Source: Candidatus Vampirococcus lugosii (GTDB taxonomy: Bacteria; Patescibacteriota; Gracilibacteria; Absconditabacterales; Absconditicoccaceae). Taken from it: a stretch of DNA of 26,332 nt. The position numbers were made by a program, and so were the translations under genes. The stretch is taken from contig NZ_JAEDAM010000004.1 of the NCBI RefSeq assembly GCF_018420025.1, forward strand, positions 1-26,332. Direction: 5' to 3'. Below are positions 7,185 through 22,640 of this stretch, piece after piece (the first letter of the stretch is position 1; each line of letters opens with the position of its first letter). The notes under the pieces are model-generated. The model was given only the letters and a program-made list of their open reading frames with translations. It made no database searches and had not been told where the DNA came from.

Positions 7185-7195
7185 CTTACTACCCT

Positions 7196-7244
7196 TTCCT
7201 TATCTTTACAACTTCTTTTTAAAGTTTTAGTAAACTTTTATAGT
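7196..7244. repeat. wzx-tail repeat, copy A (decayed relic)
   Basis: Sequence TTCCTTATCTTTACAACTTCTTTTTAAAGTTTTAGTAAACTTTTATAGT has 3 mismatches over 49 nt to copy C (10114-10162). On the minus strand it reads YKSLLKL*KEVVKIRKG*, so the flippase tail is broken by a stop. Confidence 0.85.
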
Positions 7245-7338
7245 CAACTTTCTATCAAGGACTTAATTAAAAATACTTGATTTTTTATCAATATTGTTTA
7301 TAATGTTTTTAATTTAATTAGATAATTACTTATTATTT

Positions 7339-8594
7339 ATGTTAATAAAAAGATTGATTTTTGATGAAATTCAAAAAGTATTGGATACAAACAAAATAAT
7401 AATATTAAGATGACCAAGACAAGTTGGTAAAACCACTATAATGAAAGACTTACAAACAACTTTCAAAAGTCAGAAAACTGTGTTTTTGGATATGGATGAC
7501 CTTGATATAAAAGAAAAGATAAAGACAGCTTGAAACTTGATAAATTATATAAAATTTGAATACTCATATCAAGAAAATGAAGATATTGTTATATTTTTAG
7601 ATGAATTTCAAAATATAGAAAATGCAGGTGTTTTTCTTAAAAATATATATGATAAATATTCAAATATAAAGTTAATTTGTAGTTGATCCTCAAGTTTGGA
7701 AATAACAAAAAATATTGAACATCTTACAGGTAGAAAAATAGTGTTTGACATTACTCCATTTACTTTCAAGGAATATCTAAAAGCAAGAAAATTTAAAAAT
7801 TATAATATAAAGTTTAATATAAATAACTTTAATGAAATAAATGATTTTTATAATATTTATCAAAATGAGCTAGAAAATTTTTTAAAAGAATATCTAACTA
7901 TATGATGATATCCTGAAATTGTTTTGACTACTTGAAACATTAGAAAAAATATAGCAAAAGATATTACAAAACATATATTCAAAAAGATATAACATCATTT
8001 TTACATATAGAGAATATACAAGCTTTTAATAATTTGCTTAAAATAATTTCTTCTCAAATTTGAAGTTTGTTAAACAAATCAGAACTAAATGCTACTTTAT
8101 GAATATCAATAAATACTTTAAAAAAATATCTTAATATACTTGAATGAACTTTCATAATAAACATATTAAATCCTTTTTATAAAAATGTAAGGAAAGAGCT
8201 TAGCAAAATGCCAAAAATTTATTTTAATGATATGTGAATTAGAAATTATTTACTTTACTGAAACCTTGAAGAACTTCCAACTGCTAATATATGAGAATTG
8301 GTAGAGAATTTTGTTTATAATGAATTAAAATTAAAAGATAATAATTGAATAAATTTTTATAGAACTATATCCAAAGCAGAAATAGATTTTATATTTCAAA
8401 AATCATTTGATAAAATTATACCTATGGAAGTAAAGTATAGAAATAAAGTAAATGTCCCTGAAATTATGCAAAATTTTAGTAAAAACTATTCAAGTAAAAT
8501 AGATAAAAAAATAATTATTACAAAGAATAAATTAGAAATAAAAGAAGATGTTTATCTTATACCAGCTTGTTTGGTAAGTTTTATAAACCTTTAG
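7339..8594 (+). pseudogene. AAA+ ATPase with DUF4143 / PD-(D/E)xK-like C-terminal domain, disrupted by a 1-nt frameshift
   Basis: Frame 1 (7339-7992) encodes MLIKRLIFDEIQKVLDTNKIIILRGPRQVGKTT (Walker A), FLDEFQ (Walker B) and TIGGYPEIV, then stops at 7990-7992. Frame 0 continues from about 7971 with YIQKDITSFLHIENIQAFNNLLKIISSQIGSLLN...MPKIYFNDMGIRN...AEIDFIFQ...PMEVKY to TAG 8592-8594. The total of 1256 nt is not a multiple of 3. One extra A in the run at 7968-7971 would restore a 418-aa protein. Confidence 0.8.
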
Positions 8595-8597
8595 CTT

Positions 8598-8641
8598 TTC
8601 CTTATCTTAACAACTTCTTTTTTAAGTTTTAGTAAAGTTTT
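8598..8641. repeat. wzx-tail repeat, copy B (relic)
   Basis: Sequence TTCCTTATCTTAACAACTTCTTTTTTAAGTTTTAGTAAAGTTTT has 2 mismatches over 44 nt to copy C. The minus strand reads KTLLKLKKEVVKIRKS* with no gene body upstream. Confidence 0.85.
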
Positions 8642-8757
8642 TCTTGATTTTATTTTTATTATGTATATAATTTCTCCCATATATGGTAATATAAACCTAC
8701 CTAAAATTCCCAGAATTGGTAAAGACAATATATTTTTTATAATATTATAATATACAA

Positions 8758-10110
8758 ATGGAACTTAAAAGAAATATATATCAAGAATTGACAAACTGGA
8801 GTAAAAAGAAAAATAAAAAGCCTCTTATCTTGAAAGGTGCAAGACAAGTATGAAAATCTTTTGTTATAGAACATTTTGCAAAACATAATAATATAAACAT
8901 ACATAAGATAAACTTTCAATCTCAAAAAGATGCTTTTTATATATTTGATTGAAATCAAGATGCCAATACTATATTAACCAAGATTGAGTATTTTTTAGAT
9001 ACAAGTATAGATATAGACAATGATTTATTATTTTTTGATGAGATACAGGAATATCCTAAAGCTATAAATTCACTTAAATTTTTACAAGAAGAAAAACCAG
9101 AACTTAAAGTTATAGCAGCTTGAAGTTATCTTTGAATTATGAAAAATCAAGAATCTTTCCCGGTATGAAAAGTTGAATATCTTTCTATGTTTCCACTTAC
9201 TTTTGAAGAATTTTTACAAGCAATCGATAAAAAACTTTATGATTTTTATAATACTATAGATGTGGATAATATGAAAGTTATAGATACTTTTTTTCATCAA
9301 AAATTGCTTGATAAGTTTTATTTGTATTTGGCTATATGATGAATGCCTGAAGTTGTTTTGTCTTTTATAGAACATGTAAAAGATAATTCTTTATATGAAA
9401 CTTTAAATATAGTTAGAAAAAAACAAGAACAGCTTCTTGAATCATATAAATCAGATTTTTCTAAGCATGCATGAATAGTAAATTCAAGTCATATACTAAA
9501 TGTTTTTGAAGCAATTTCTATACAATTATCAAAAGCAGATTATGAAGAAACCAACAAGTTTAAATTTACTTGAGTTATACCAAATCAAAAAGGTTATGAT
9601 AGGATAGTATGACCACTTACTTGGTTATCAAAAGCAAGACTTGCTATACAAAGTTTTATCATATCAGATACTAAACAACCTTTAAAGGCAGAAGTTCAAA
9701 AAAATAAGTTTAAAGTATTTATGCATGATATATGACTTTTAAATGCTGAATTATCTACTCCTATACATTCATTATTAAATATAAAAAGTTCTTTATGATC
9801 ATATAAATGATATATTATAGAAAATTTTATAGCTTGTGAATTATTTTCAATTACTGATAAACATCTATTTACCTGGACTAGATGAAAATCAGAGATAGAG
9901 TTTATATTTGAGAAAAAAACACATCTAATACCCATAGAAGCTAAATCATCAGATAAATCAAGGAAAGCTAAAAGTTTACTCTCTTTTATAAAAAGATATA
10001 ATCCTACATATGCATATAAGTTTACAGCACAAAACTATTGAAATAAAAATTGATTTGAAACTATTCCTTTATATTTAATTTGAAAAATATTTAAAGAAAG
10101 AAAGTATTAA
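8758..10110 (+). CDS. AAA+ ATPase with DUF4143 / PD-(D/E)xK-like C-terminal domain (intact paralogue)
   Basis: The frame has 450 codons. Motifs are PLILKGARQVGKSF (Walker A, Gly=TGA), LLFFDEIQ (Walker B), LAIGGMPEVV, FMHDIGLLN and SEIEFIFEK...IPIEAKS (nuclease-like E-x-E/D...E-x-K). It matches the 7339-8594 gene only at family motifs. Confidence 0.85.
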
Positions 10111-11642
10111 TTTTTCCTTATCTTAACAACTTCTTTTTTTAGTTTTAGTAAACTTTTATAGTTTATGATCAAAAATCATAATCAAAATATAGCAAAAGCT
10201 ATCATCAAGTACAATAAATTTTCATACCTTGCACTATTTGTATATTCAAAAAAAATTCATTTCAAACTATATAGTATAAGTCATACTATCAAAAAATAAA
10301 CTATATTTCAAAATAAAAATCACCTATAAAGTATGATAGGGTTTTTCTTATATATGTAGATAAATGAAAATAAAAACATCATAAACCAAGCTATGATACT
10401 TGATATAACTGCTCCATATACTCATATAAAAGGTATCAAAGCTCCATTTATAAGGATATTTACAAGTGCAGCAAAAGCTATTATCTTTACTCTATTTTTT
10501 GGTTTTCCATAAGCATTTATCACTACAAAATTGAACTGAAATAAAACTTTTAGAACCAAAAATAAAGCTATAAACTGTAAAAGTATACCAGAAAGTAAAA
10601 AATGATCACCAAATAATACTATAGATACTATATCTCAAAATAATAAGAAAAATACTCAAAGTGCAAAAAATATAATTCAAAAATAATTATAATATATGTT
10701 TTGTAATATCTTAATTTTAAAATTTTCTTTTTTTTCTATAAGCTCTGTGATGATAGGCAAGAAAAGTTGCATGATAGGTCATATAAACATTCATTGTATC
10801 ATAAACAAACTTTTAAAATTTGTATAATATCCTGCACTTTCTGTTCAAGCAAGGAACAAAACCATCTGTAAATCTATCTGTCACATAACAACTCATGCTT
10901 GACCTCAAAGTAATGCCCATAATCCATAACTATGAAAACTTTTTAAAGTATCTTTATTGTATGATATATCTATCTTTTGAAGTTTAACCTTTTTTAAAGC
11001 TTTTATATATAAAAATATACAAGAAAGTACAAAAGCTATAACTCATCAAAGTATCCAAGTAAGAAAATAATTTTCTATACTACCATTTTCAAAAAGAAAA
11101 AAACTTAATGTAAAAGCAAATATAAGCCACATTCTTATAGCATTTGAAAATCTTTGATAGAATATTTCTTGAAAAGAATTTAATATATTATTTACAAGAC
11201 CATATAAATTTAAAAGTATAAAATAAGCTATAATATAGTATATAAAAGTTTTACTAGCATAAGAATCAAGATATATGTTTGATATCACATCTGCTCAAAA
11301 GTATATAAGTAAAGATATGATAATAGAAAAAAATATTTGAAAAATGATAGTATATCATATCAAAAATCAAACTTTTTTATCTTCACCTTTAGCAAGAAAC
11401 TTAGGTATAAAATAATTTAAAGCTCACTTATTTCAAAGATCTCAATATATTACAAGTATACTTACAAGTCAAAGAAGTGAATATATAATTCAAATATCTG
11501 AAACTCATAGATCATTTGAAAGTATAGTTCTTATAAGATATCAAGTAGGAGCTATGATAAAAGCAAAAAAGTATAACCAAAATCATTTAGTTAATAATTT
11601 CTTTGCAAGTGTTTCTTCCTTGAAAAGTTGATTATCTTTCAT
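10107..11642 (-). CDS. wzx: MOP-superfamily oligosaccharide flippase (Wzx / polysaccharide biosynthesis protein)
   Basis: The 511-codon minus-strand frame was checked triplet by triplet for TAA/TAG. It contains track ORF 11046-11288 in frame. The protein is hydrophobic with many helix-length segments. The N-terminus MKDNQLFKEETLAKKLLTKGFWLYFFAFIIAPTGYLIRTILSNDLGVSDIG is typical of Wzx/PST proteins. It sits beside the glycan locus. Its stop codon (complement of 10107-10109) overlaps the ATPase stop at 10108-10110. Confidence 0.75.
10114..10162. repeat. wzx-tail repeat, copy C (functional 3' end of the flippase gene)
   Basis: Sequence is TTCCTTATCTTAACAACTTCTTTTTTTAGTTTTAGTAAACTTTTATAGT. On the minus strand it encodes the last residues NYKSLLKLKKEVVKIRKN* of the 10107-11642 ORF. 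Confidence 0.85.
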
Positions 11643-11675
11643 TTATATTTGATTTTTTTAGGTAAATAATAAGTT
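11642..11675. repeat. 34-bp direct repeat, copy 1 (immediately upstream of the wzx start codon)
   Basis: TTTATATTTGATTTTTTTAGGTAAATAATAAGTT is identical to 12953-12986. Position 11642 is the A of the wzx ATG on the minus strand. Confidence 0.9.
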
Positions 11676-11725
11676 AAGAAAAATTAATTTTCATATTTAT
11701 TAAATTTATAAGTTCTTGAATTAAA

Positions 11726-12337
11726 TTATTTTTTACAAAAGTTTTTTTGGTCTTGAGTTAAAACTTCTCATAGTCAATCAAGTATCTTATAGTTTTTAGG
11801 TGATTTTTCTAATTTTTCTCTTATTTGTATGAGTGCTTTTTTGTATGTTTTTCAAGTTCTTTCTTCTATAACTTTCTCATTTACATCAAAAAGATTTTTA
11901 AAGAAAAAGTATATATCATATATATCTCTATTTGCATTTCTTTCAATAAAAGAAACAAGTTTATTTGCAAATATAGTTGATTTATCTTGTACTTTTATAT
12001 CTGTTCCATAAAAATTTACTATTTCATATTTATTATTTTTCCAAATTTTCCTGTTTATATCTATTTTTATATTTACATCATATTCTCAGTAAGAAAGCAA
12101 TATATTATGACCTTTTTTAACTTTTCAGTATTTTTTTAATATATCTACCATCTCCTCATCTACTTGCTCAAAGTCTTCCAAAAGATCAAAATCTAAATCT
12201 GTAGAAAATCTATCTAATCAATATAAAAAATAACAAGCAGTTCATCATTTAAAAGCCAAGTATTTACCAAGTTTTGATGAAAAAATATCCTTTAATATTA
12301 AAAACATAATTTGTCTATGTTTATCAGTATTAAGCAT
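11726..12337 (-). CDS. abiEii: AbiEii/AbiGii-family nucleotidyltransferase toxin (type IV TA, DUF1814)
   Basis: The 203-codon frame was checked for stops. The N-terminus MLNTDKHRQIMFLILKDIFSSKLGKYLAFKGGTACYFLYGLDRFSTDLDFDL carries the KGGTA...R.S.DLDF nucleotidyltransferase signature of AbiEii. It overlaps the upstream gene by 8 nt (ATGCTTAA). Confidence 0.8.
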
Positions 12338-12890
12338 TGTTTAGTATTTTTTTAATTTCTAAAATAACTCTTTTATTGTATATCAAACTTATCTTTTCTA
12401 ATTTATCTTTATCTATATCTTCTAAATTATCAAAATAATAGTTTGCTGATAAATATAACCTATCACAGATAGCTCTTTCCTTGCTTGCTATCATATAGTT
12501 TCATTTGTTTATAATTCATATAGGATTTAAAAGAATATCTTTTTTTAGGTTTAAGTATCTAAAATTAACTCCTAAAAACTGTTTTGTAATAGTATTATCA
12601 CTTGCAAGAAATATAGTGTCTTGATAATCTTGAAATATAATTCATTCTTTTTTAAGAACTGTTTCAAAGCTAATATATGAATTTTTTTTAAGTTTTGTTG
12701 AAAGTTCAAGTTTGTTATATTTTTTTAATGTATATATTCATTTAGTTATATAGTCAAAAATACCGTTTTTTACTCATCTTGAAAAAAAACTTTTTATAGT
12801 TTCTTTATTTTCTATTCATACAATATTTTTTATATCATTGTATGTAAAAACTGTCTTTCAAGATCAGATTATTTTATCTATATTTTTCAT
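12330..12890 (-). CDS. abiEi: AbiEi-like antitoxin / transcriptional regulator
   Basis: The 186-codon frame was checked for stops and is translationally coupled to abiEii. The N-terminal wHTH-like segment is FTYNDIKNIVGIENKETIKSFFSRGVKNGIFDYITKGIY. The C-terminal SKERAICDRLY is as in AbiEi_4-type antitoxins. Position and size fit the family. Motif evidence is moderate. Confidence 0.65.
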
Positions 12891-12903
12891 ATATCATCTC
12901 ATA

Positions 12904-12927
12904 AGGTTTAAATCTAAACCTATTATA
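12904..12927 (-). promoter_or_regulatory. Candidate abiE promoter -10 box with overlapping inverted-repeat operator
   Basis: The minus strand reads TATAAT (complement of 12922-12927), followed directly by AGGTTTA-GATT-TAAACCT. This is a perfect 7-bp inverted repeat (plus 12904-12910 / 12915-12921), 14-31 nt upstream of the abiEi ATG. AbiEi proteins are known to autoregulate through inverted repeats. The AT-rich background makes chance matches likely. Confidence 0.35.
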
Positions 12928-12952
12928 ATGAAATTATGTAAAAATCAATATT

Positions 12953-12986
12953 TTTATATTTGATTTTTTTAGGTAAATAATAAGTT
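12953..12986. repeat. 34-bp direct repeat, copy 2 (upstream of the abiE operon)
   Basis: Identical to 11642-11675. It lies 63 nt upstream of the abiEi start. Confidence 0.9.
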
Positions 12987-13127
12987 TCAATGTATCTATA
13001 TCATATATTATATATAATTTTTTATTCAAATTACTGAAAAGATTTTAGTTTTTTATGATGAATAGCTATAAAATATTTATTTTTTGTAATATTTTGTTTT
13101 TGCATATTAAAAAAATATTTAAAATTT

Positions 13128-15206
13128 TTACAAAATTCATGTATACCAGTGAATATCTTTTATTATTTGTTTTTCAAATGCTCATGGTGCATAATATACA
13201 TATATATGATCAAAAGATATTTTACTTGACATAAGATTTAATAAAAATTCAAATCATCAAACTACTATTTTTTTATTTTTTATTTGAGAATAGTAAATAT
13301 TTTTACCAACTCATCAAGTAATATTTTCAAATAATAATTCATAATTAAGATTATAGTTATTATTTAATAAATATTCAAAAAGTTCTTTAGATTTATTTTT
13401 ATTGACACAAAGTATAAATATATTATTATGTTTTGATATATTATCAATTATTTTATTTTTATCATTTTGTTTAGATAATTTAATATTACTATAAGATTTA
13501 TCACCTCATATTGAATAAAATCATTCTTTAGTATTATTTGAAAAAAATACAACTTCATTTTTATCAAAAAAATCCATAAATTCTTGATAATTAATTAAAT
13601 TATTTGTTCTATAAAATGTAAAATAAAATTTATTTTCATCATACATCATTTTTTTTATCAAACAAATATTATTGAATATATCGTCCATATCATCAAAAAA
13701 ATCTACAATACAATCTCTATCTTCATTTTCTAATTTTTCTGAAATAACAAGTAAATCTTCTCTCAGAGAATTAAAAAGTTTATTTGATAAATAAAAATCA
13801 ATATTTCATTTGATATAATCAATTTCTACTATATCTTTTGAAATTCAAATAAATTGTTTTGTTATTTCTTTGAAAAGAATACCAGTAAATATAATAAATT
13901 TAGTATAAAATTTATTTAATTCATATATATCAAGTCATTTAATTTCATATTTATATATAAAAAATTCAAGTTTATAAATAACAAAATATAGATCAAATGG
14001 TTTATTTAAATATTTTGATAAACTATTGTACCAAGTATCCCGATCAAAAAAATAAATTTTGTAATCAGATATATTTTTATTTTTTATAAATTCAAATAAA
14101 TTATAATGATTTGCTAGAACTATATCAGATAATTTTTTATCAATTCACTTTTGCAAAAAATTAGAAATTTTGAAATCATTTGCCAAAGATAAATCCAAAA
14201 ATCAATGTCATTTATCATATTGACTAAAATACTTTATTAAAAAATTAATTTCAAAAAAATTAAAATTATCTTTTCATAAAAATAAATTTGTATTTTCTTT
14301 ATCAAAAATAGAATTATTTCCCAAATATCAAATATTTTTTACTCATAAATTTGATAATAAAGTTTTTGCAATTTTAAGTTTTGATGGATTTTGAAAACAA
14401 ATAATTCATTTTTTATTTGTTGTTGCTATATCATACAAAACTTTTTTGAAAGATTCATCTCATACATAAAATTTATCTCAATCTTTTGATTTAGAAATTG
14501 TATTATCAGGTCATTTATTTATAATTTTGGAATTAACAGCTACTTCTTTTTTTAATCAAGGTAAAAAATAATTTGATTTATCTACATAATAATCATCTTT
14601 TATATCAAATATTTGATTATAAATACTTTCTGATCTTAAAATACAATTTTTTAAAATAGGAAATTTATTTGACAAATTTCAAAATCTTTCAACAAAAAAT
14701 TTAAAAATATTATAAGATGCCAAGCTATCTGTCAAAGCATCATGATAGTCTCAATCAATAATTATATTATATTCTTTTTTTAAAATTTCACTTATAATTT
14801 CCAAAGAATAACTCGGTAAAAAATGAAATATACTATGCGACAAATGAAAAGTATCCAAAGTTTTAACAAAAGATAAATCCATATATTTTGATAAAATATT
14901 TATATCAAACATAATATTATGTCAAATAATAACAGTATTTTTATCAAAATATTTTGAAATTTGCTTCAGAATATCTTGTATATACGGTGCATCTTGCAAA
15001 TCATTAACATTAATATTAGTTACGAATTTTACAATATTTTTTAAATCTAAACTGTTTGATTGTGGTTTTATATAAGATTTATATTTTTCTAATATATTAA
15101 AATTATTATCAAATTTTACTATTCATATTTGAATGGGTTCATCTTTTTTGATATCTAATCAAGTTGTTTCTAGATCTAGAGATATATAATTTAAATTTTT
15201 AAGCAT
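13128..15206 (-). CDS. dinG: DnaQ-type DEDDh 3'-5' exonuclease domain fused to a degenerate DinG-like helicase region
   Basis: The 692-codon frame was checked triplet by triplet. Exo I is ISLDLETTGL, Exo II is IIGHNIMFDINIL and Exo III is YHDALTDSLA, all in the first ~170 aa. The long C-terminal region has DinG-like end segments (VVGGFEFLLNL...YVYYAPGAF). I could not find a GxGKS/T Walker A. Confidence 0.7.
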
Positions 15207-15299
15207 AATCAAATTAATAAATATAAAAATACAATATTTATTGTATACTAAATAATTTCTTGAATTCAAGATTTTTAATAAGTTTTTATCAATTTTTAA

Positions 15300-15338
15300 A
15301 ATAAACAAAATGATGAAGTTTTTTGTCAACTTCATCAT
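15300..15338 (-). terminator. Rho-independent terminator after the clpC-like gene
   Basis: A perfect 11-bp stem ATGATGAAGTT (15310-15320) / AACTTCATCAT (15328-15338) has a 7-nt loop. On the minus strand it is followed by TTTTGTTTAT. It lies 22 nt after the stop codon. Confidence 0.7.
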
Positions 15339-15359
15339 AGTTTATATACTTAATATAAA

Positions 15360-17390
15360 TTAAACATTTTCAATTATTTCTTCTATTATTTTTGGTTCTA
15401 TTTGTTCATGAATATATCTAGAAATTGGTCTAGCTCAATATTCAGGTGCATAAATTTCATCAATAATAGATTGTATATTTTTTACATTATATTTTGGTAC
15501 TGATATTCATTTTTTTTCTTTCCATAATCTTGAAAATTCTTTATATTCTTTTTGAAAAATATCAATCATTATTTCTTTGGAAAGAGGTTTAAATACTATA
15601 GTATTATCTAATCTATTTAATAATTCAGCAGATATTTCAGATTTCAACTTTTCCATAACTCTTTCTTTCACTATATCAAAATCTTTATCAAAAGAATCTT
15701 TTGAAGATTTATTATTAGTTCAAAATCAAATTTTTACTACTTTTTTGGCAAATTCTTCCGATCAAATATTTGAAGTAAGAATTATTATAGTATTTTTGAA
15801 GTCAATTAATCTTCATTTATTATCTTTTAGTGTTCATTCATCAAGAATTTGCAACAAAATATTTAAAACATCAGGAGATGCTTTTTCTATTTCATCAAAT
15901 AATATAATACTATAAGGATTTCTTCTTACAGATTCTGTAAGAGTTCATCATTCATCATAACCAACATAACCAGGAGCAGATCAAATAAGTTTACTAGAAC
16001 TATTTCTATCCATATATTCCGACATATCAACTCTAATAAGTGACTTTTCGCTTTCAAAAAAATGTTTTGCTAACAATTTAGTAATATAAGTTTTACCAAC
16101 ACCTGAAGGTCATAAAAATAGAAATGATGCAATAGGTTTTTGTCTATCTATCACAGATATACGATTTCTTTTTATATAGTTTACTAAAGATTGAACTGCT
16201 TCATCTTGTCCAACTAAATCTTTTTTTATCAAAGTATCCAAATCTTTAAGTTTATTTAATTCTGATTCATTAAGTTTAGATTTAGGAATTCATGTTTTCA
16301 TAGACAAAACTTCACTTATATTTATACTATCAACATTTGTTCTCAAATGTTTTGGTAATGAATTTTGAGATCTAATATTTTTCATTTCTTGTTTCAAATT
16401 TTCTTCTTCTTCTTTAAGTTCCGCCGCTTTAAAATAATCTTGATTTAAAATTGATGCTTGTATTTTTTTTTGCAAAATTTCAAGTTTTTTTTCTACTTGT
16501 TTGTATTCATCATTTTTTTCTAATTTTTCTCATAAAGTAGATTGTCTTGCACATGCTTCATCAATTAAGTCTATTGCTTTATCAGGCAATTGTTTATTTA
16601 ATATATATCTTGAACTTAATTCAACAGAAGTATGTATTGCATTATCTGCAATATTTACACCATGAAATGATTCAAATTTTTCTCTAATACCAAATAAAAT
16701 TTTTTTAGTATCTTCATTACTAGGTTCATCAACATTTACTTCTTGAAATCTCCTTTTTAATGCAGGATCTTTTTCAATATGTTTTTGATATTCGTCATAT
16801 GTTGTTGCACCTATTAATTGTAATTTACCTCTAGATAAAAAAGGTTTAAGTATGTTTGCGGCATCAGCTCATCATTCTGTATTTCAAGCTCATATTATAG
16901 TATGTAATTCATCAATAAATAAAATAATATTATTAGTAGGATCAGTTGCTTCTTGTATAATAGTTTTTAATCTTGATTCAAATTCTCATCTATATTTGGT
17001 ACCAGCAACCAGTCCACCAACATCAAGCATAAAAATTCTTTTATTTTTTAATTTCTCAGGGACATCATTATTTTCTATTTTTTGAGCTAATCATTCAACT
17101 ATAGCCGTTTTACCAACTCAAGCTTCTCATATAAGTAAAGGATTATTTTTTGTTTTTCTCAAAAGAGTATATATAGTTTGCTGAATTTCTTCATATCTAC
17201 CTATCACTGGATCCAAATATCAATTTCTTGCTTCAAAATTTAAATTTGTTCAAAAATGTTCAATAGTAAGTTTTTTTTCTTCTACTTGTGAGGAAGTGTC
17301 TATTTTACTATCATCTCAATTATTTGTTCAATCTATAAGATCTTGATCCGATTCATTTTTTATTGACTTATAATTATTGTTTATATACAT
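15360..17390 (-). CDS. clpC: ClpC-like class I Clp/Hsp100 AAA+ ATPase lacking the Clp_N domain
   Basis: The 676-codon frame was checked for stops and contains track ORF 16290-16475 in frame. D1 motifs are [23 protein letters not shown] and ILFIDELH. The UVR-like linker is [20 protein letters not shown]2 motifs are [21 protein letters not shown] and GARPISR. The ClpP-docking loop is KIGFG. Only about 45 residues precede D1. Confidence 0.9.
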
Positions 17391-17488
17391 ATTTTATTTT
17401 TTAAGATATTATTTTTTAAATTTATTATTAATTTTTACTTTTAAGTAATTAATATTTATATATTAAACTTAAAATAAAATTAAATATA

Positions 17489-17701
17489 TTATTTTTTAAA
17501 AACATTTTTTAGACAAAATCTTTTCATTTCTTTCATTCATGAAAAAAAGAAATTAAATTTATTTTTTAAATTATTTTTTAATTTAGAAAAAAATGATTTT
17601 CATTTTGGAGATTTGGAAAATCAACCAAATCACAATAATGCTGTACCTATAACACCACCTATTATTACTTTATTAATTTTTTTTTCAAATAGATTCTTCA
17701 T
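17489..17701 (-). CDS. Small hypothetical protein (70 aa), possible single-pass membrane protein
   Basis: The ATG at 17701 opens MKNLFEKKINKVIIGGVIGTALLGFGGFSKSPKG... with one hydrophobic Gly-rich segment and a basic tail. No family was recognised. It is supported only by an open frame and a plausible upstream promoter. Confidence 0.3.
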
Positions 17702-17740
17702 AATTATTTTTTTAAGATAAATATATAAAAAAGTTTTTTG

Positions 17741-17768
17741 ATTATAATAATTTATAATATAAAATCAA
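17741..17768 (-). promoter_or_regulatory. Candidate sigma70-type promoter for the small ORF / clpC unit
   Basis: The minus strand reads TTGATT, a 16-nt spacer, then TATAAT (complements of 17763-17768 and 17741-17746), about 40 nt upstream of the ATG at 17701. Such hexamers arise easily by chance in this AT-rich DNA. Confidence 0.3.
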
Positions 17769-17790
17769 TATTAGTTGACTTTAATTTTTG

Positions 17791-17978
17791 TATTAAAAAA
17801 ATAATTAATAATCTCATTATTTTATATACAAATAAATTAATTTTATCAAGTTTACAAATTTTTGTAATACTGACAAATATTATTAAATAAACAATTTTTG
17901 CATTTAGGATTTTTTGCAAGACATTGATATCTACCAAAAAATATAAACAATTGATGAGCTTTATTTTTTCTGTTATTA
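17791..17978. repeat. 188-bp perfect direct repeat, copy 1 (orphan nth 3' end plus 61 bp downstream)
   Basis: Identical base for base to 21890-22077 by manual comparison of the full strings. On the minus strand it encodes NNRKNKAHQLFIFFGRYQCLAKNPKCKNCLFNNICQYYKNL* but is preceded by an in-frame stop (complement of 17984-17986). It is therefore a gene fragment, not a gene. Confidence 0.95.
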
Positions 17979-18053
17979 AGTGTTTAATCTCATTAAACTA
18001 TTAGAAAGCTGTTATTCTATTATTTATTTCAGTCTACAAAGATGAGTTTAAAT

Positions 18054-18105
18054 TTATAAAAAAATCAAGAAATTAAAGTAATTATATTTTACTTAATTTC
18101 TTGAT
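18054..18105 (-). terminator. Rho-independent terminator after the secreted-protein gene
   Basis: The stem ATCAAGAAATTAAAGTAA (18064-18081) / TTACTTAATTTCTTGAT (18089-18105) has one bulge and a 7-nt loop. On the minus strand it is followed by a T-run (complement of 18058-18063). It lies 60 nt after the stop at 18166. Confidence 0.65.
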
Positions 18106-18165
18106 TTTAGTAACAGACAATTTCTATTATAACTAGAATTATTATTTTTAATCTAAAAAATTAAT

Positions 18166-20472
18166 TTATTCAAATAATTTTGGAGATTGTCAAATATGAT
18201 ATTTTACAATAAAATTTTCTGCATAACCAGATGTTGTATGTCATTTATTTCAAGTTCTAAATTTGTTTAAATCATACATTAATGATTTATGATAATTACC
18301 AGTTTTTTTTCATCAAGGTAATTTATAAGTACCAGCTTCTCATATAGATCATCAAATTGTATTCCTAGTATATAACCTTCATTCAAGTATTAATTGTTTA
18401 TCTAATCAAGTTGTTCTTTCATATGAGTCAGTATAATTACTAAATCAAATAGCATCATCCCATATACTTATGAAACCTCAATCTCAATATATATATGCAT
18501 TTATTTTTTTTACATCATTTTTTATAAAGATATTTCATAAATGATCGTCATCATAATGATCTCTAATTAAAACTATTCATTTCATATCAACAATATCACT
18601 ATCAATTATTAAATTTCAATTTTTAATTACTATTGTTGACACATCTGATAAATCATAAATATTTGATATATCGTCTTCATATACTATATCATCATTATTA
18701 TTAATATCTAAATATAGTATTCAATTATTTTTTTGTTCATGAACCATTCATCTTATAGACTTTAATACATTACTTTTAAATTTATTTCTAAATTCAGATG
18801 TAGAAATACTAGAAAAATTTCTTTGCTGATTTGTTATTTTTTGATTTCAAATAGCTTGTGAATATCAAATTATCCTAATTCAAGAATAACTTGAATCATC
18901 TAGTGTTACTTTCCTATCATCTGGTTCAATTCAATCAGATAAATAATATCTAACTGTATTTCAATCTAAATCATATAAAACATATGGATCTGATTCTATA
19001 CTTACATTATTTATAAATTGATCTGTACCAGTATAATTTAAAATAAATTGTAATTCTGATTTTCAATCACTTAACATGTTATTAAATCAAGTTGTATACT
19101 GTATATAATATCAATTACTTGATGAAGTTAATGTATCTAAATTTTCAGTTTTTAAACCACTTTCTCAACTCAATCCAGATAAAGATTCTTTTTTTGGAGT
19201 TAATATTAATTTTTGTTGATTTCATATTATAAATCACATTGGATCCACATTCAATTCTCAAATATATGGTTTCAAAAAACTATAACGAACTGAAGAGACT
19301 GTCATCTTCGTTCATCATAAATTAAATCATATATCTCAACTATTTGATTTAAACGGTGATCTTGATTTAATTCAAGTCATAGGCACTGAAAAAGATTTAG
19401 CAGTAGAAGTAGGTATTCAAGAAGATGAAACAGTACCAAAATTTAAAGCAGTTCAAGAATTATTTATTCTATCAGAATTTTCTCAAGATTCATCCTCTAT
19501 ATTTGTAATAGATCTTGTTCAAGGTGTTCGTTTAATTCATTTATTTTGTTTAGTAGAAGCTGATATATTAAGACTAACTTCACATGAAGAAGAATTATCA
19601 GCATATATATTATTACATGTAGAAGATGGTGTATTTAAAGCATTTATAGTTATAGTAGCTGGAGGTGTAGTAGGCTTAGGTGCATCAGGAGGACACGAAG
19701 AAGTATTACATGGTCAACAACTTGTACTACAATTTCAGTCATCATCACAAGATTCTTTACAAGTTTGACTTCAACAAGATGATCTATTAGCAGTAAAAGA
19801 AGGAGCTTGAATACACTTTATTTTTCAATCATTAGACCATGATCAAGTAACTTCACAAATAGACCAATGTGTACTCCATGATGCTATATAACTACTACAT
19901 GCAGATGTAGTTGTTGTTACTGTTAAATCTGGATCTGGATCTGGGTCTCAATCTGGATCTGGATCTGGGTCTCAATCTGGATCTGGATCTGGGTCTCAAT
20001 CTGGATCTGGATCTGGGTTTCAATCTGGATCTGGATCTGGGTCTCAATCTGGAGCTGGATCTGGGTCTCAATCTGGAGCTGGATCTGGGTCTCAATCTGG
20101 ATCTGGATCTGGGTCTCAATCTGGAGCTGGGTCTGGAGCTGGTTCTGGAGCTGGGTCTGGAGCTGGTTCTGGATCTACCACTCTAGCACTAGCTCAATTA
20201 TGACAAGCTACGGAATTTTCATCTCTATCAACCTTAGCATGATCTAGTCACCCCTCTTCAATTGCATCAAACAGTTCATCTACAGTTTCAAAAGTTGTAG
20301 CATGATTAGACCATTCATCAAGTTGTTGCTGATTACCTCATCAAACAATAACTTTTGTTCAATCTCCAATAGTAACTTCTTTTTCAAGATTTCCTAATAC
20401 TAAAGGGTTTCATAAAATAGAACTTAAAGATATAAAAACAATTATAAACATTTTATATAATATTTTTTTCAT
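18166..20472 (-). CDS. Secreted protein with an acidic Pro/Asp tandem-repeat linker, a Cys-rich module and a large C-terminal domain of unknown function
   Basis: All triplets of the 768-codon frame were checked and show no TAA/TAG. The signal-peptide-like N-terminus is MKKILYKMFIIVFISLSSILG. It contains (DPDPDPDG)x8 plus PAPD/PAPE units. The Cys-rich stretch reads SACSSYIASWSTHWSICEV...CGSQTCKESCDDDGNCSTSCGPCNTSSCPP. About 480 aa then follow that I could not assign to a family. Confidence 0.8.
19927..20175. repeat. Coding tandem repeat: 8 x 24 bp followed by degenerate 12-bp units
   Basis: The plus-strand unit ATCTGGATCTGGATCTGGGTCTCA repeats at 19927, 19951, 19975, 19999, 20023, 20047, 20071 and 20095, with a few A/G/C variants. 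AGCTGGGTCTGG/AGCTGGTTCTGG units then run to 20175. In the gene frame each 24-bp unit encodes DPDPDPDG with the Gly as TGA. Confidence 0.95.
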
Positions 20473-20481
20473 TTTTTAATT

Positions 20482-21699
20482 TTAATTATTAAATTTTAAA
20501 TCTGCTACATAATCATCAACTCATTTAACATTTCAAAACAATCAATAATTATTTCTTTTTAATTCATTATCAACAAAGATATCCCAATAATAATATTTAT
20601 TCATATTATTAAATAAATAATTCATATCCGTTTCTTTATCTTTTTTAAGTACTTCAAATACTGTAAAAAACATAATAGTGCTTCTAATTTTATTTTTTCT
20701 TAACTCTCTTTGATTATCCATAAGTATAATATCATTATCTACAACACTTAATCATTTATTCATATAATTAACAGCTAATTCAAAGTCTCAAAAATTATAT
20801 TCAACAAGTCATTTATAATAATATGCTTCATATCAATTAGGATTTAAATCAATACTTTTATCTAAATAATCATTTATTTCTTCATATAAAGAAGAATCAT
20901 TTTTCATATATAATCATCTAGCAACTCATAAATATCACATAGGATAATTTTTATTATAATTTATTGATTCTTTAGCATATTCAATAGATTTTTCTATATC
21001 TGGATTTAATTGATTAACATTTAATACTATACTACTCAAAGAATAATAAATTTCAGATTTTAAACTATTACTATTAGTATCTAAAGATTTTTTAAAATAT
21101 TTAATAGATTCTTTATATTTTCAATTCCTAGCTAAATATCTTCATATATTTCAAGATGCCTCATGATTATTATCTATATCATAAGATTTATGATAATATT
21201 TATATCATAATTTTCTATCTCACATAATATCATATACATGTCATATCTGATTCAAAAGTATAGCTGCTTCATTTTCGGAAAGATTATCCAAATTTAATGC
21301 TTTATTATAAAAATTAATTGCTAATTCATATTCTTTTATAATTTCATTTGCAAATCATTTATAATACAAAACATTAAAACTATCTTCCTTATCTTCCAAA
21401 AGATCTAATACTATAGATGAATATTTATTCTCTTCATACTTATAGACTCATTCTTGCAAATAAGAATGTAAAAGTTGATCAAATTCTGCACTATCTAAAT
21501 TATCAACTCATTTTTCAGTATAATAAGTAATTACTGTTTCATAATTTCATAACTCAATCATTTTACTTATATCTACATTATTTTCTTTATTATTAAACTC
21601 TTCATCATTAAACTCATCTTTGTTAAAAAATAAAAAATAAAATACTAGTAAAAATGAAAAAGAAAAAATTAGTAAAAATAAATATTTTTTTTGATACAT
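20482..21699 (-). CDS. Tetratricopeptide-repeat protein with N-terminal membrane anchor
   Basis: The 405-codon frame was translated row by row. The N-terminal hydrophobic segment is MYQKKYLFLLIFSFSFLLVFYFLFF. Repeated TPR-like units follow, such as YYKGFANEIIKEYELAINFYNKAL, GHVYDIMGDRKLGYKYYHKSY, RYLARNGKYKESIKYFKKSL, YLGVARGLYMKNDSSLYEEINDYLDKSIDLNP and AYYYKGLVEYNFGDFELAVNYMNKGL. The stop lies 9 nt before the next gene's start. Confidence 0.75.
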
Positions 21700-21727
21700 A
21701 TTAAATAATATAAACGAATAAATTTTA

Positions 21728-21754
21728 ATACTAATTTTTAAAAAAAATTAGTAT
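21728..21754. repeat. Perfect 12-bp inverted repeat (A/T-rich palindrome) upstream of the TPR gene
   Basis: ATACTAATTTTT (21728-21739), an AAA spacer, then AAAAATTAGTAT (21743-21754). It lies 29-55 nt upstream of the TPR ATG (21699), inside the cassette. Its function (operator or terminator) is unknown. Confidence 0.5.
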
Positions 21755-21889
21755 ATGTCAATACTATTATTTTTTTTATCTTTTTCAAGTCTTTTTTGCT
21801 TTTTATAGCAAATATGTATTTAAAGTACTCCATTTTTCAAAACCAATTTAAACCTTTTAAGGTAGTGACATTTAGTATAAATTAGTTCT

Positions 21890-22077
21890 TATTAAAAAAA
21901 TAATTAATAATCTCATTATTTTATATACAAATAAATTAATTTTATCAAGTTTACAAATTTTTGTAATACTGACAAATATTATTAAATAAACAATTTTTGC
22001 ATTTAGGATTTTTTGCAAGACATTGATATCTACCAAAAAATATAAACAATTGATGAGCTTTATTTTTTCTGTTATTA
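21890..22077. repeat. 188-bp perfect direct repeat, copy 2 (true 3' end of nth plus 61 bp downstream)
   Basis: Identical to 17791-17978 and contiguous with the rest of the nth reading frame. Confidence 0.95.
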
Positions 22078-22640
22078 GGAATTATTTCTTCCAGTATTTT
22101 TGAGGTTTGAACTTCTCTTTTAGTTTTTACAATTCAAATTCTATTTACAATTCTATGAATATGTGTATCTACAGGCATAGTAGGAATTTTATAATATTCA
22201 CTCAAAAATACTTTTGCAGTTTTTTCACCAACTCAAGGAAATTTTATTAATTCATACAAATTATCAGATATCATATATCAATATTTTTCATACATAATAA
22301 TAGAAAGATTATTTTTAATATCATTTTTTGATAAATTTAATGATTGAGTATATAATATATTACTAGTTTTATAAATATTATTTCATTTTGAATTATAAAG
22401 TCATATTGATTTTATTTTTTCTTTGAAATTATCTAATCCTATATCCAAAATATCTTTTGGAGAATTTATATAATCATAAAATTTTGCAGTTGTTTTATTT
22501 ACTTGTATATCAGTTGATTGTGCTGAAAGCATAATTGAAATTAATAATTGAAAAGGAGTTTTGTAATTCAATTGAATTTTTGCATCAGGAAATTCTTTTT
22601 CAAGTTGATCTAGTATATAATTTATATCTATATTATTCAT
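21951..22640 (-). CDS. nth: Endonuclease III (DNA-(apurinic or apyrimidinic site) lyase / glycosylase)
   Basis: The 229-codon frame has track ORF 22401-22640 as its N-terminus (MNNIDINYILDQLEKEFPDAK...LLISIMLSAQSTD). The HhH-GPD motif is LIKFPGVGEKTAKVFL followed by VDTHIHRI. The C-terminal 4Fe-4S loop is C-x6-C-x2-C-x5-C (CLAKNPKCKNCLFNNIC). Confidence 0.9.

Follow-up and report, generated by a model that had tools for sequence, protein, structure and literature searches.

Cassettes without a recombinase of their own between duplicated gene ends at wzx and nth in Candidatus Vampirococcus lugosii

In staphylococci, SCC and pseudo-SCC elements at the 3′ end of rlmH (orfX) include recombinase-less cassettes that are flanked by direct repeats containing the last bases of the gene and that occur in tandem arrays; SCC integration itself depends on the serine recombinases CcrAB/CcrC and an integration-site sequence of 15–20 nt. 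Campbell-type integration is best known from laboratory use and from plasmids with extensive homology, and we know of no description of a natural, recurrent flux of cassettes on gene-end homologies of 34–188 nt. Integron cassettes are recombined by IntI at attI through attC sites, which are structured imperfect palindromes. CIMEs, known from accretion at gene 3′ ends in streptococci (ICESt1/ICESt3; PMC5704250), arose by decay of ICEs or IMEs whose cognate integrase is known and have a single fixed att core, and the tycheposons of Prochlorococcus (bioRxiv 10.1101/2020.12.28.424599) insert at tRNA genes and encode tyrosine recombinases or replication modules. Here we describe a locus in which cassettes lie between direct copies of protein-gene ends. 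The structures are biological insertions with duplication, and the cassettes, which carry no recombinase of their own, are gained and lost.

The DNA analysed (the window, 26,332 nt) is an entire contig of Candidatus Vampirococcus lugosii, a predatory and recoded CPR bacterium, with 21% GC and genetic code 25. Code 25 was required for gene calling; TGA far outnumbers GGN in counts, and under this code the coding density of the window was 94%. The genome was assembled by SPAdes 3.6.0 from 2 × 125 bp reads of MDA/MALBAC-amplified DNA from about 10 consortia.

Repeat sets and cassettes in the window

Three sets of repeats, all direct, lie at the wzx 3′ end, the wzx 5′ end and the nth 3′ end, as the original prediction had placed them, and they are far beyond chance. 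In 100 Markov-1 simulations the longest exact repeat averaged 17.6 nt and reached at most 21 nt; the exact repeats of 188, 34, 28 and 22 nt are the only ones in the window above this maximum, apart from one coding tandem repeat. The predicted polarity also holds for the repeats in the window: the host gene is completed by the proximal copy, and the distal one is the orphan. Each cassette forms a short self-contained unit set at the very end of a host gene and flanked by direct copies of that terminus, with the gene intact and the displaced copy orphaned. Cassettes comprise 1–2 genes each, span 1.3–4 kb and mostly have a promoter-like start; their orientation is uniform per site, convergent with wzx at its 3′ end and co-directional at its 5′ end. 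Searches with Pfam and defence models bore out the gene identities proposed earlier, namely AAA_14/DUF4143 ATPases, a Polysacc_synt flippase, AbiEii/AbiEi, an HhH-GPD Nth and a TPR protein.

The features at the wzx 3′ end (site 1) are as follows.

~7190..7244, minus strand: R_A, distal orphan wzx 3′ tail, in which the wzx frame reads LLKL*KEVVKIRKG*
7277..7304, plus strand: promoter-like start of the ATPase1 cassette, TTGATT-16-TATAAT
7339..8594, plus strand: ATPase1, AAA_14 + DUF4143, match to the PADLOC candidate defence family PDC-S01
8596..8640, minus strand: R_B, middle orphan wzx 3′ tail, still encodable (LLKLKKEVVKIRKS*)
8644..8671, plus strand: promoter-like start of the ATPase2 cassette, TTGATT-16-TATAAT
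8758..10110, plus strand: ATPase2, AAA_14 + DUF4143 (PDC-S01), its stop overlapping the wzx stop as TTAA
~10107..10162, minus strand: R_C, functional wzx 3′ tail, third member of set 1
10107..11642, minus strand: wzx-like flippase (Polysacc_synt profile match), the anchor gene

Set 1 consists of three diverged copies of the last ~45–55 nt of wzx, 93–94% identical over 45–50 nt (BLASTN), and was reproduced in independent assemblies of two separate amplification runs (Logan contigs L149 and L150). R_B and R_C have one exact 28-mer in common. R_A is 83% identical to the functional tail across the 70-nt family, retaining the frame and terminal stop with one internal nonsense change. The two ATPases are only ~30% identical at the amino acid level, against 93–94% for the tails that flank them, and tandem duplication was therefore rejected as the origin of the array. 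ATPase1 is frameshifted at 7967–7968 in the deposited contig, which had been read as a split gene; in an independent assembly of SRR13241708 it is an intact protein of 418 aa. Matches to the PDC-S01 model (PADLOC, 4e-123 for ATPase2 and 2e-81 for the intact version of ATPase1) make both ATPases candidate defence proteins.

At the wzx 5′ end (site 2), the repeat is a perfect one of 34 nt (11642–11675 versus 12953–12986, 100% identical).

11642..11675, minus strand: proximal R34, directly upstream of the wzx ATG and including its A
11726..12902, minus strand: abiEi-abiEii cassette (AbiEii 11726–12337; AbiEi 12330–12890 or to 12902)
12953..12986, minus strand: distal orphan R34, ~50 nt upstream of the abiE promoter-like region

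Judged by its sequence, the cargo is an AbiE type IV toxin-antitoxin or abortive-infection system, with adjacent AbiEi antitoxin (PADLOC 1e-38) and AbiEii nucleotidyltransferase (Pfam 3.5e-19; PADLOC 3e-46). Contig L149 breaks 30 nt (k-1) inside the proximal R34, matching the expectation for a true repeat.

At the nth 3′ end (site 3), the repeat measures 188 nt (17791–17978 versus 21890–22077, 100% identical) and consists of the terminal 127 nt of nth and the 61 nt that follow.

17489..17701, minus strand: small 70-aa ORF, named YtxH-like by NCBI, which adjoins nth on the right in the empty-site allele
17791..17978, minus strand: orphan R188, with nth codons 188–229, the stop codon and 61 nt downstream
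18050..18112, minus strand: intrinsic-terminator-like hairpin with U-run at the end of the cargo operon (by folding)
18166..20472, minus strand: cargo gene for a secreted Pro/Asp-repeat protein, 768 aa, absent from L153
20482..21699, minus strand: cargo gene for a TPR protein, 405 aa, absent from L153
21761–21734, minus strand: promoter-like site of the cargo, TTGACA-type
21890..22077, minus strand: proximal R188, the functional 3′ end of nth (HhH-GPD; nth 21951–22640)

A terminator-like hairpin of its own closes the site-3 cassette; it folds at −20.5 kcal/mol (z = −5.3), and 0 of 200 shuffles were as stable. The original prediction has to be amended here, the cargo being a transcription unit typical of the lineage, neither defence nor clearly foreign.

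An empty site, which had been sought, was found at nth in an independent assembly of SRR13241709 (contig L153). It contains nth, one R188 copy, the small ORF and ClpB, and corresponds to window positions 24528–21890 joined to 17978–16414 through a single R188 copy. The site-3 cargo, together with a shorter contig carrying the small ORF, is present in other Logan contigs. The cassette at site 3 is recent and still present or absent across the sampled cells. Both alleles, one-copy empty and two-copy filled, as Campbell-type integration requires, were found at this site only; in V. lugosii no empty alleles were found for sites 1 and 2. Since L153 differs from the deposited contig by 9 substitutions and 2 indels, the empty allele may be a separate haplotype rather than a recent excision.

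Single-strand folding of nine repeat units drawn from the three genomes, with one or both strands of each, yielded no hairpin or attC-like structure (z −0.2 to +1.7 versus shuffles), no core sequence common to the wzx 5′, wzx 3′ and nth 3′ sets was found beyond chance, and none of the 25 longest inverted-repeat pairs of the window lies at cassette ends. No window ORF matched an integrase, transposase, relaxase or reverse transcriptase in Pfam/domain searches, and neither tRNA/tmRNA genes (ARAGORN) nor RNA families (Rfam) were found in the window. The claim that no recombinase is present holds for this contig and fails genome-wide, the genome paper listing two integrases and several transposases outside it.

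Three familiar classes of element were considered and rejected. A tRNA-targeting island or tycheposon is ruled out, there being no tRNA, tmRNA or integrase in the window. An integron or CALIN does not fit repeats without a hairpin, the lack of an integrase Pfam match and an array head formed by wzx. A transposon or insertion sequence does not fit the lack of a transposase domain and of terminal inverted repeats, or duplications of 34–188 nt as opposed to 2–15 bp.

The wzx region in other Absconditabacteria

The same architecture was found in two further Absconditabacteria. In the complete genome of Absconditicoccus praedator, three orphan copies come after the wzx tail and mark off a DUF4325 pair, an AbiE pair and an ATPase, and SoFic lies between duplicates of the wzx 5′ end (70 nt, 93%); an assembly of the raw reads is 100% identical across 14.8 kb. 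In the MAG GCA_041694255.1 (L154), a 103-nt copy of the wzx tail (98%) encloses an AbiE pair together with the ATPase, and an epimerase and AbiE are enclosed by a 101-nt copy (71%) and a partial copy of the wzx 5′ end. Other cargo at the same site, which had also been looked for, is thus present at wzx in both genomes, where it comprises a PDC-S01 ATPase, AbiE, SoFic, the DUF4325 pair and the epimerase. In a further relative (L089), PcrA lies directly upstream of wzx. No integrase Pfam match was obtained among the called genes of A. praedator (L086) or the MAG, and across ~10 cassettes in the three genomes neither integrase remnants in or beside the cassettes nor transfer-gene remnants of a decayed ICE or IME were found. 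Repeat length differs among genomes at the 5′ end (34, 70 and ~130 nt) as at the 3′ end (48, ~50 and 103 nt).

Cassettes and anchors differ in conservation. The abiEi-abiEii pair is 95–96% identical in amino acids and 91% in nucleotides to the pair upstream of wzx in the MAG, and ATPase2 is 72% identical in amino acids to its A. praedator orthologue and 79% to that of the MAG; the anchors are less conserved between lineages (wzx 35–40% aa, Nth ≤58%, ClpB ≤75%). Homology of the window to L151 and L154 starts at 8643, precisely at the start of the ATPase2 cassette. The block at 7276–7296 (CTTGATTTTTTATCAATATTG), a single-copy 21-mer in the window, has an exact counterpart upstream of the A. praedator ATPase, again in single copy (L086, 15964–15984, rc).

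Taken together, sequence comparison across the three genomes indicates that both wzx ends form a common landing zone collecting mostly predicted anti-phage cargo, and that this hotspot probably predates V. lugosii as a species. The original prediction of three independent sites has to be revised, sites 1 and 2 being the two ends of one gene. Nor are these three recent private acquisitions, since the junction of ATPase2 with the wzx tail (TTAA) and the linkage of abiE to wzx are older than V. lugosii or were exchanged as blocks. The recurrence in three genomes and the empty nth site do sustain the view that the repeats are insertion-type duplications, neither coincidence nor assembly artefact. 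Of the att-style integration reading, the part concerning integration-type duplications around mobile or polymorphic cassettes stands, and the independence of the three sites does not.

Origin and movement of the cassettes

We tentatively prefer gain and loss of the Campbell type, guided by homology, to the action of a recombinase in trans, with a probability of roughly 0.45. A crossover between the flanking direct repeats would excise the cassette as a circle with one repeat copy; this circle, or imported DNA with a copy of the gene end, would enter the corresponding gene end of another cell or lineage through one Campbell-type crossover, which would recreate the gene-end duplication. The machinery would be host homologous recombination plus the encoded competence apparatus, with no cassette-borne recombinase; ComEC, ComEA and type IV pili are reported in the V. 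lugosii genome (PMC8080830). The fast-evolving wzx body could later be swapped by allelic replacement, with the conserved cassettes as homology arms, and we propose that orphan and functional ends therefore differ mainly at synonymous sites. Orphan wzx ends retain frame and stop, and 25 of their 53 differences from the functional end are synonymous, versus 18.5% expected.

This model is supported by the empty one-copy R188 allele, by the variable repeat length at the same site with no shared core, by the window's lack of a recombinase gene, tRNA or structured site, and by AbiE and ATPase2 cassettes that are more conserved than wzx, Nth and ClpB. Against it, homology of 34–50 nt is an inefficient substrate for homologous recombination, and several orphan copies, at only 66–83% identity to the functional end, are too diverged for present-day RecA. 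The origin of the first duplication at each site and the preference for both wzx ends are left unexplained by it, uniform cassette orientation is equally compatible with a directional site-specific enzyme, and integrases are encoded elsewhere in the genome.

Those integrases and transposases, with the uniform orientation within each site, lend some weight to a reading we consider unlikely, though it is the strongest rival: that the cassettes are integrase-less passengers, resembling CIMEs or pseudo-SCC, for which a site-specific recombinase in trans, genomic or on a visiting element, uses gene ends as att. Orphans at 66–75% identity, poor for homologous recombination, would still be usable by such an enzyme, and the arrays would grow by tandem accretion. 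Three unrelated targets with no common core beyond chance argue against it, as do repeat lengths and boundaries that vary among genomes at the same site, repeats without inverted-repeat or hairpin structure, and the absence of an integrase remnant from ~10 cassettes in three genomes.

We regard as improbable that the orphans are immobile scars, left where wzx, a fast-evolving surface-glycan gene, was repeatedly replaced through natural transformation and where one-sided homology (homology-facilitated illegitimate recombination) occasionally stranded old gene ends and their neighbours. The reported competence genes and the flanking cassettes, more conserved than wzx, would agree with this, as would the mosaic structure of wzx (the first ~176 nt 91% identical to L154, the remainder ~37% aa) and the resemblance of orphans to ends of other wzx alleles that had evolved under selection. 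It is contradicted by the perfect 188-nt duplication at nth with an empty allele in the same population, by the position of every orphan exactly on a cassette boundary, and by recent duplicates that have hardly diverged (100% over 34 nt, 98% over 103 nt and 93% over 70 nt).

An assembly or amplification artefact (SPAdes loop resolution, MDA/MALBAC chimeras or template switching) is very improbable: the DNA was so amplified and assembled from short reads, the filled nth arrangement relies on read pairs because the 188-nt repeat is longer than any read, and one run gives the empty arrangement only, but sets 1 and 2 are sub-read-length or diverged, set 1 recurs in two runs, the complete A. praedator genome (from another laboratory), its raw-read assembly and a third MAG share the architecture, the nth cargo is joined to the repeat at both ends as two independent chimeras would not be, and cluster look-ups point to a run in which R188 forms a branch and the cargo occurs.

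Comparison with known systems

Like CIMEs and the accretion elements at gene 3′ ends (PMC5704250), the present cassettes have no integration or transfer genes, form arrays in which one repeat copy separates the units, and leave the target gene intact. They differ from CIMEs in being single transcription units of 1.3–4 kb without decay remnants, in using both ends of one gene, and in having repeats of variable extent with no core or recombinase found. They resemble the SCC and pseudo-SCC arrays in lacking recombinase genes and in lying in tandem beside a gene whose last bases recur in the direct repeats between them. From SCC they differ in that the repeats measure 34–188 nt and neither such an enzyme nor a conserved short site is evident.

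The likeness to tycheposons (bioRxiv 10.1101/2020.12.28.424599) lies in a streamlined genome that lacks classical mobile elements, defence genes in the cargo, successive integrations at one site, partial target copies and presence/absence heterogeneity; the present targets are protein-gene ends rather than tRNA genes. With integron cassettes and CALIN they have in common one or two genes per cassette, uniform orientation, a repeated site between units and toxin-antitoxin or defence cargo. Unlike attC, however, the present repeats are unstructured copies of a coding gene end, and most cassettes have their own promoter-like start. A further parallel is Campbell-type insertion-duplication, in which direct duplicates flank the insert, the event is reversible through the repeats, and no dedicated enzyme is needed.

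It is possible, though we hold it more tentatively than the preferred model itself, that Absconditabacteria, which lack conjugation and encode competence, swap cassettes of defence and surface genes independently of recombinases, with the conserved termini of certain host genes (wzx at either end, nth at its 3′ end) serving as portable landing pads. Cassettes would leave through the repeats that flank them, travel as DNA and come back in by one homologous crossover, restoring the duplication. If true, such exchange would resemble the cassette economy of integrons while operating without an integrase or structured sites.

Repeat sets, gene content and assembly support

Direct repeats of gene ends fall in three sets within the window (forward-strand coordinates):

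17791-17978 and 21890-22077: 188-nt repeat (R188) of the nth 3' end, perfect copies, bracketing the TPR and secreted-protein cargo (site 3)
11642-11675 and 12953-12986: 34-nt repeat (R34) at the wzx 5' end, perfect copies, bracketing abiEi/abiEii (site 2)
about 7190-7244, 8596-8640 and 10107-10162: wzx 3' tail, three copies, with ATPase1 and ATPase2 between them (site 1)

Exact repeats in sequences simulated with first-order composition never exceeded 21 nt, and every longer exact repeat on the contig belongs to these sets, save one coding tandem repeat; the three sets named in the original prediction are confirmed, beyond the simulated chance maximum. The wzx tail copies beside the ATPases are 93-94% identical over 45-50 nt. 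All three copies keep the wzx frame and stop position, with the functional end, attached to the host gene, encoding LLKLKKEVVKIRKN and the orphans, displaced to the far side of a cassette, encoding LLKLKKEVVKIRKS and LLKL(stop)KEVVKIRKG, each closed by a stop. A tandem duplication of one ATPase and its flank was ruled out for this set, as ATPase1 and ATPase2 are only ~30% identical at the amino-acid level.

No core common to the three repeat sets was found, and attC-like structure was rejected on folding, the repeats being unstructured. The motif AAAATCAAG (CTTGATTTT on the other strand) borders all orphan tails; it was rejected as a recombination core because it falls on the -35 box of promoter-like sites where cassettes start, supplies the stem of the terminator at site 3 as well, and has six occurrences across the window. 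Taken together, the 175 promoter-like matches in this AT-rich DNA show no enrichment over shuffles (157 ± 12), so the promoter assignments are only suggestive.

The window uses genetic code 25. The standard bacterial code gives no ORF longer than 138 aa; with TGA translated as sense, the coding fraction of the window is 94%. In almost all genes TGA is used much more often than GGN glycine codons (59 against 12 in the 768-aa ORF), and TGG is retained. The genes include two AAA_14/DUF4143 ATPases, a Polysacc_synt flippase, AbiEi/AbiEii, a DinG-like exonuclease, ClpB, a 70-aa ORF, a 768-aa secreted repeat protein, a TPR protein and Nth. Domain matches uphold the cargo and flanking identities originally proposed, and the domain search agrees with the claim that recombinases are missing: no recombinase, transposase, relaxase or reverse-transcriptase domain was found in any contig ORF. 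The window contains no tRNA and no known RNA family. In the DinG-like ORF (13128-15338), an RNase_T/DnaQ-type exonuclease domain is clear at N-terminal residues 53-212; the other ~500 residues have no Pfam helicase domain match, and the annotated start, with its 45-residue hydrophobic leader, is doubtful. The 768-aa gene carries a 12/24-nt tandem repeat (19878-20231) encoding ~20 (D/A)PDPDPDG-like units, a stretch at which short-k assemblies break and whose copy number may vary.

Composition and TGA-glycine usage are equally extreme in cargo and host genes, indicating that the exchange pool is the recoded lineage itself. Close relatives are absent from the collections, the best non-self identities being 58% for Nth, 40% for Wzx and 73-75% for ClpB. 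A ClpB-centred genome scan returned no empty sites and only distant relatives, the best with 73% ClpB identity and synteny limited to small ORF-ClpB. A metagenome scan with ATPase2 gave nothing above 37% identity, and viral-contig scans with AbiEi and the TPR protein gave no matches.

The window is evidently contig 7 of the V. lugosii genome paper, whose list of horizontally transferred genes names the VAMP_7_1 glycosyltransferase, 7_63 sulfotransferase and 7_102 AAA+ ATPase (PMC8080830). Supplementary Data 1 of that paper lists ~13 V. lugosii 'AAA ATPase' genes as horizontally acquired, many with low contig gene indices, that is, near contig ends (PMC8080830); this suggests that the PDC-S01/DUF4143 family, a PADLOC candidate defence family of ATPases, is multi-copy and tied to assembly breaks genome-wide. 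DNA from ~10 cell consortia per reaction was amplified by MDA or MALBAC, sequenced as 2x125-bp reads and assembled with SPAdes 3.6.0 (PMC8080830), a history that makes the question of artefact serious.

Logan assemblies of two V. lugosii runs reproduce the diverged set 1, one contig (L149) corresponding to window 7200-11671 and another (L150) to 8607-10712. L149 ends 30 nt into the 34-nt repeat, reproducing the break predicted at 11671, and a further Logan contig of 1336 nt compares with a predicted 1337-nt unitig between the R34 copies; both are signatures of a genuine repeat. The 188-nt repeat is longer than the reads, the filled nth arrangement rests on read pairs, and the assembly graph at R188 fits a circular 4.1-kb form equally well. 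Artefact is nevertheless unlikely, since the cargo joins R188 at both ends and a like structure occurs in an independent genome: that the repeats are purely artefactual seems highly improbable overall, and perhaps slightly less so for site 3. Compared with the Logan assembly of SRR13241708, in which the gene is intact (418 aa), the deposited ATPase1 has a substitution and a 1-nt deletion at 7967-7968 that split it into ORFs of 217 and 128 aa; this difference is likely an amplification or assembly error or a minor variant.

The wzx ends and their cassettes in other genomes

In the complete genome of Absconditicoccus praedator (CP054059.1), the functional tail at the wzx locus (L086) encodes IFVKELKRFRKSK and a stop. 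It is followed by three orphans (LVKELKRFRKK and FLGKELKRFREG, each with a stop, and FVKELARFKKSQ...) each in the gap between one convergent unit and the next; the units are a DUF4325 gene and its 296-aa partner, an AbiEi/AbiEii pair, and a 450-aa AAA_14/DUF4143 ATPase. At the other end of the gene, 70 nt across the wzx start are repeated 1312 nt upstream with 93% identity, and the two copies enclose a Fic gene with a match to the SoFic defence system. Over 14,852 nt, a k-mer assembly of a raw run is 100% identical to the region. Two tandem 40-nt units (L086 9857-9936), each with a palindrome TCGACA...TGTCGA, operator-like in appearance, separate the wzx 5' copy from the SoFic gene.

At the wzx locus of MAG GCA_041694255.1 (L154), the last 103 nt of wzx are repeated 3084 nt downstream with 98% identity, bracketing a second AbiE pair and an ATPase; an older tail remnant (...KKNRKN, stop) adjoins the ATPase stop. 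The wzx start region has a 101-nt copy of 71% identity (MTNNLLKYETLTEKLVKKGF versus MNNNLLKDETLTHKLISKGF) plus a partial copy (codons 8-14), and these 5'-end copies bracket an epimerase gene and an AbiE pair. A sensitive scan of four further loci (L085, L087, L088 and L089) found no wzx-end copies; AbiEi-AbiEii-Fic lie directly upstream of wzx in L085, and PcrA abuts wzx in L089. The recurrence of the architecture in other genomes marks both wzx ends as a recurrent landing zone. Both V. lugosii ATPases match PDC-S01, and most wzx-end cargo is, by such model matches, probably defence-related (PDC-S01, AbiE, SoFic).

On alignment, the cassettes are discrete units, better conserved than their wzx anchor. 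ATPase2 is 72% identical in amino acids and 75% in nucleotides to the A. praedator ATPase, 79% and 81% to the L154 ATPase, and 81% in nucleotides to that on a contig of a fourth organism (L151). Its nucleotide homology to L151 and L154 begins at window 8643, at the -35-like CTTGATTTT, and that to L154 reaches about the ATPase stop (10118); the stops of the ATPase and of a convergent wzx tail overlap as TTAA in each of the three genomes. The AbiE pair is 95-96% identical in amino acids to the L154 pair, and 91% nucleotide homology, which begins a little upstream of abiEi, takes in the proximal 34-nt repeat and the first ~176 nt of wzx (11466-11642, ~59 codons, ~91%); over the remainder of wzx, amino-acid identity is ~37%. 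The gene is mosaic, which implies an internal recombination breakpoint and replacement of the flippase body by that of another allele.

V. lugosii (7276-7296) and A. praedator (L086 15964-15984) share an identical non-coding block of 21 nt, CTTGATTTTTTATCAATATTG, at the distal edge of both arrays. Two short palindromes lie in it, TTGAT..ATCAA and CAATATTG. It precedes ATPase1 in V. lugosii and, in A. praedator, an ATPase with only 31% identity to ATPase1. On the L151 contig, an ATPase2-type cassette follows an epimerase gene across a 76-nt spacer (2653-2728) with an unusually G+C-rich GAGTGAAGGAGGCATGAGAGG, and the contig (end 4177) stops exactly at the ATPase stop codon, as expected if the following sequence is repeated.

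Seven orphan-versus-functional comparisons yield 53 nucleotide differences in all, 25 of them synonymous, against 18.5% expected without constraint (crude binomial p ~2e-6, the comparisons not being independent). This excess indicates that much of the divergence built up while both copies were real gene ends: either they diverged in different lineages before a cassette was imported together with its end, or the functional wzx allele was replaced later.

The nth cassette

The V. lugosii Nth protein cluster includes a 4016-bp Logan contig (L153) from run SRR13241709, with the gene order PcrA'-PilD-nth-small ORF-ClpB'. It aligns to window 24528-21890 and 17978-16414, and the 189-nt overlap represents a single repeat copy without cargo, which is the predicted empty site. 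The nth cassette is polymorphic, present or absent within the population. Since a k=31 assembly cannot traverse a repeat with two contexts, the SRR13241709 library is one without cargo junctions.

Cluster look-ups placed the TPR protein on one 1694-bp Logan contig, an exact small-ORF copy on a separate 1890-bp contig and full-length Nth on only one; indirectly, they point to another run in which the cargo is present and the assembly branches at R188. The predicted unitig for the TPR contig is 1819 nt, not an exact match to the 1694 observed, so independent support for the filled R188-cargo junction is only indirect. L153 differs from the deposited contig by 9 substitutions (7 C/T) and 2 indels in 4 kb, and L150, also from SRR13241709, is 100% identical to the deposited contig over 2.1 kb. 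The L153 differences could reflect amplification noise, introduced unevenly, or mean that the empty site belongs to a distinct haplotype.

A TTGACA-type promoter-like site and a strong terminator hairpin (-20.5 kcal/mol, z = -5.3) make the site-3 cargo a predicted transcription unit, complete in itself. Other organisms have full-length homologues of its TPR protein (up to 44% identity), and the cargo matches no defence model; it is lineage-typical, not foreign. A possible collapsed R188 copy at the right end of the cargo, with a shared 8-mer and 11-mer, was judged compatible with chance.

Routes of cassette exchange and comparison with known systems

Insertions at gene ends carry a direct duplication of that end, three genomes reuse the wzx ends, the presence of one cassette varies within a population, cassettes have crossed between lineages, and no recombinase is encoded in cis. 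As to how the DNA is cut and joined, we infer that cassettes may be gained and lost by homology-guided, Campbell-type events, a route to which we assign a probability of roughly 0.45. It is favoured by the lack of a core common to the three sets, the variation between genomes in duplicated extent at the same site, the unstructured repeats, the identity or near-identity of the youngest duplications, and the encoded ComEC, ComEA and type IV pili. Against it count lengths of 34-50 nt, marginal for RecA, older orphans too diverged for homologous recombination, the uniform orientation of cassettes, the unexplained origin of the first duplication, and integrases elsewhere in the genome. A site-specific recombinase acting in trans, in CIME or pseudo-SCC style, is a less likely alternative, with the missing core on one side and those integrases on the other. 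Immobile scars of wzx allele replacement, the event to which the mosaic gene points, are less likely still.

The original prediction of integration stands as regards the direct gene-end duplications, the nth empty site and the absence of a recombinase in cis, and other cargo is found at wzx-end duplications in A. praedator and L154. Its three independent sites do not stand, since both wzx ends form one recurrent landing zone, and the site-3 cargo is without a defence match and lineage-typical.

In CPR bacteria horizontal gene gain is substantial, even though their genomes are tiny, their genetic code is deviant and mobile elements that can be recognised are few. The locus offers a concrete, testable architecture for this flux: minimal cassettes at duplicated gene ends, conserved in three Absconditabacteria genomes, enriched for anti-phage genes next to a surface-glycan flippase, and polymorphic for presence in a natural population. 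Standard mobile-element finders would miss it, because they search for integrases, tRNA targets, inverted repeats and attC sites. As A. praedator is kept in co-culture, excision circles, empty sites and candidate recombinases are directly testable. A homology-driven route would add a recombinase-free mode of cassette exchange; a trans-acting enzyme would represent a new att specificity in a recoded lineage.

In its working, the locus is like SCC composites. It also resembles the arrays that integrative elements build by accretion at the 3' ends of genes, and CIMEs, the derivatives of such elements that lack an integrase (PMC5704250); of the CIME definition only the descriptive part applies. 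It works like tycheposon arrays (bioRxiv 10.1101/2020.12.28.424599), although it has no tRNA target. The likeness to integron arrays is superficial, as the locus has neither attC structure nor IntI, and the defining features of a transposon were not found there. Compared with CIMEs, tycheposons, SCC and integrons, no recombinase or core site is identified at the locus, the extent of its repeats is variable, most of its minimal cassettes have a promoter-like start of their own, and one protein gene is used at both ends.
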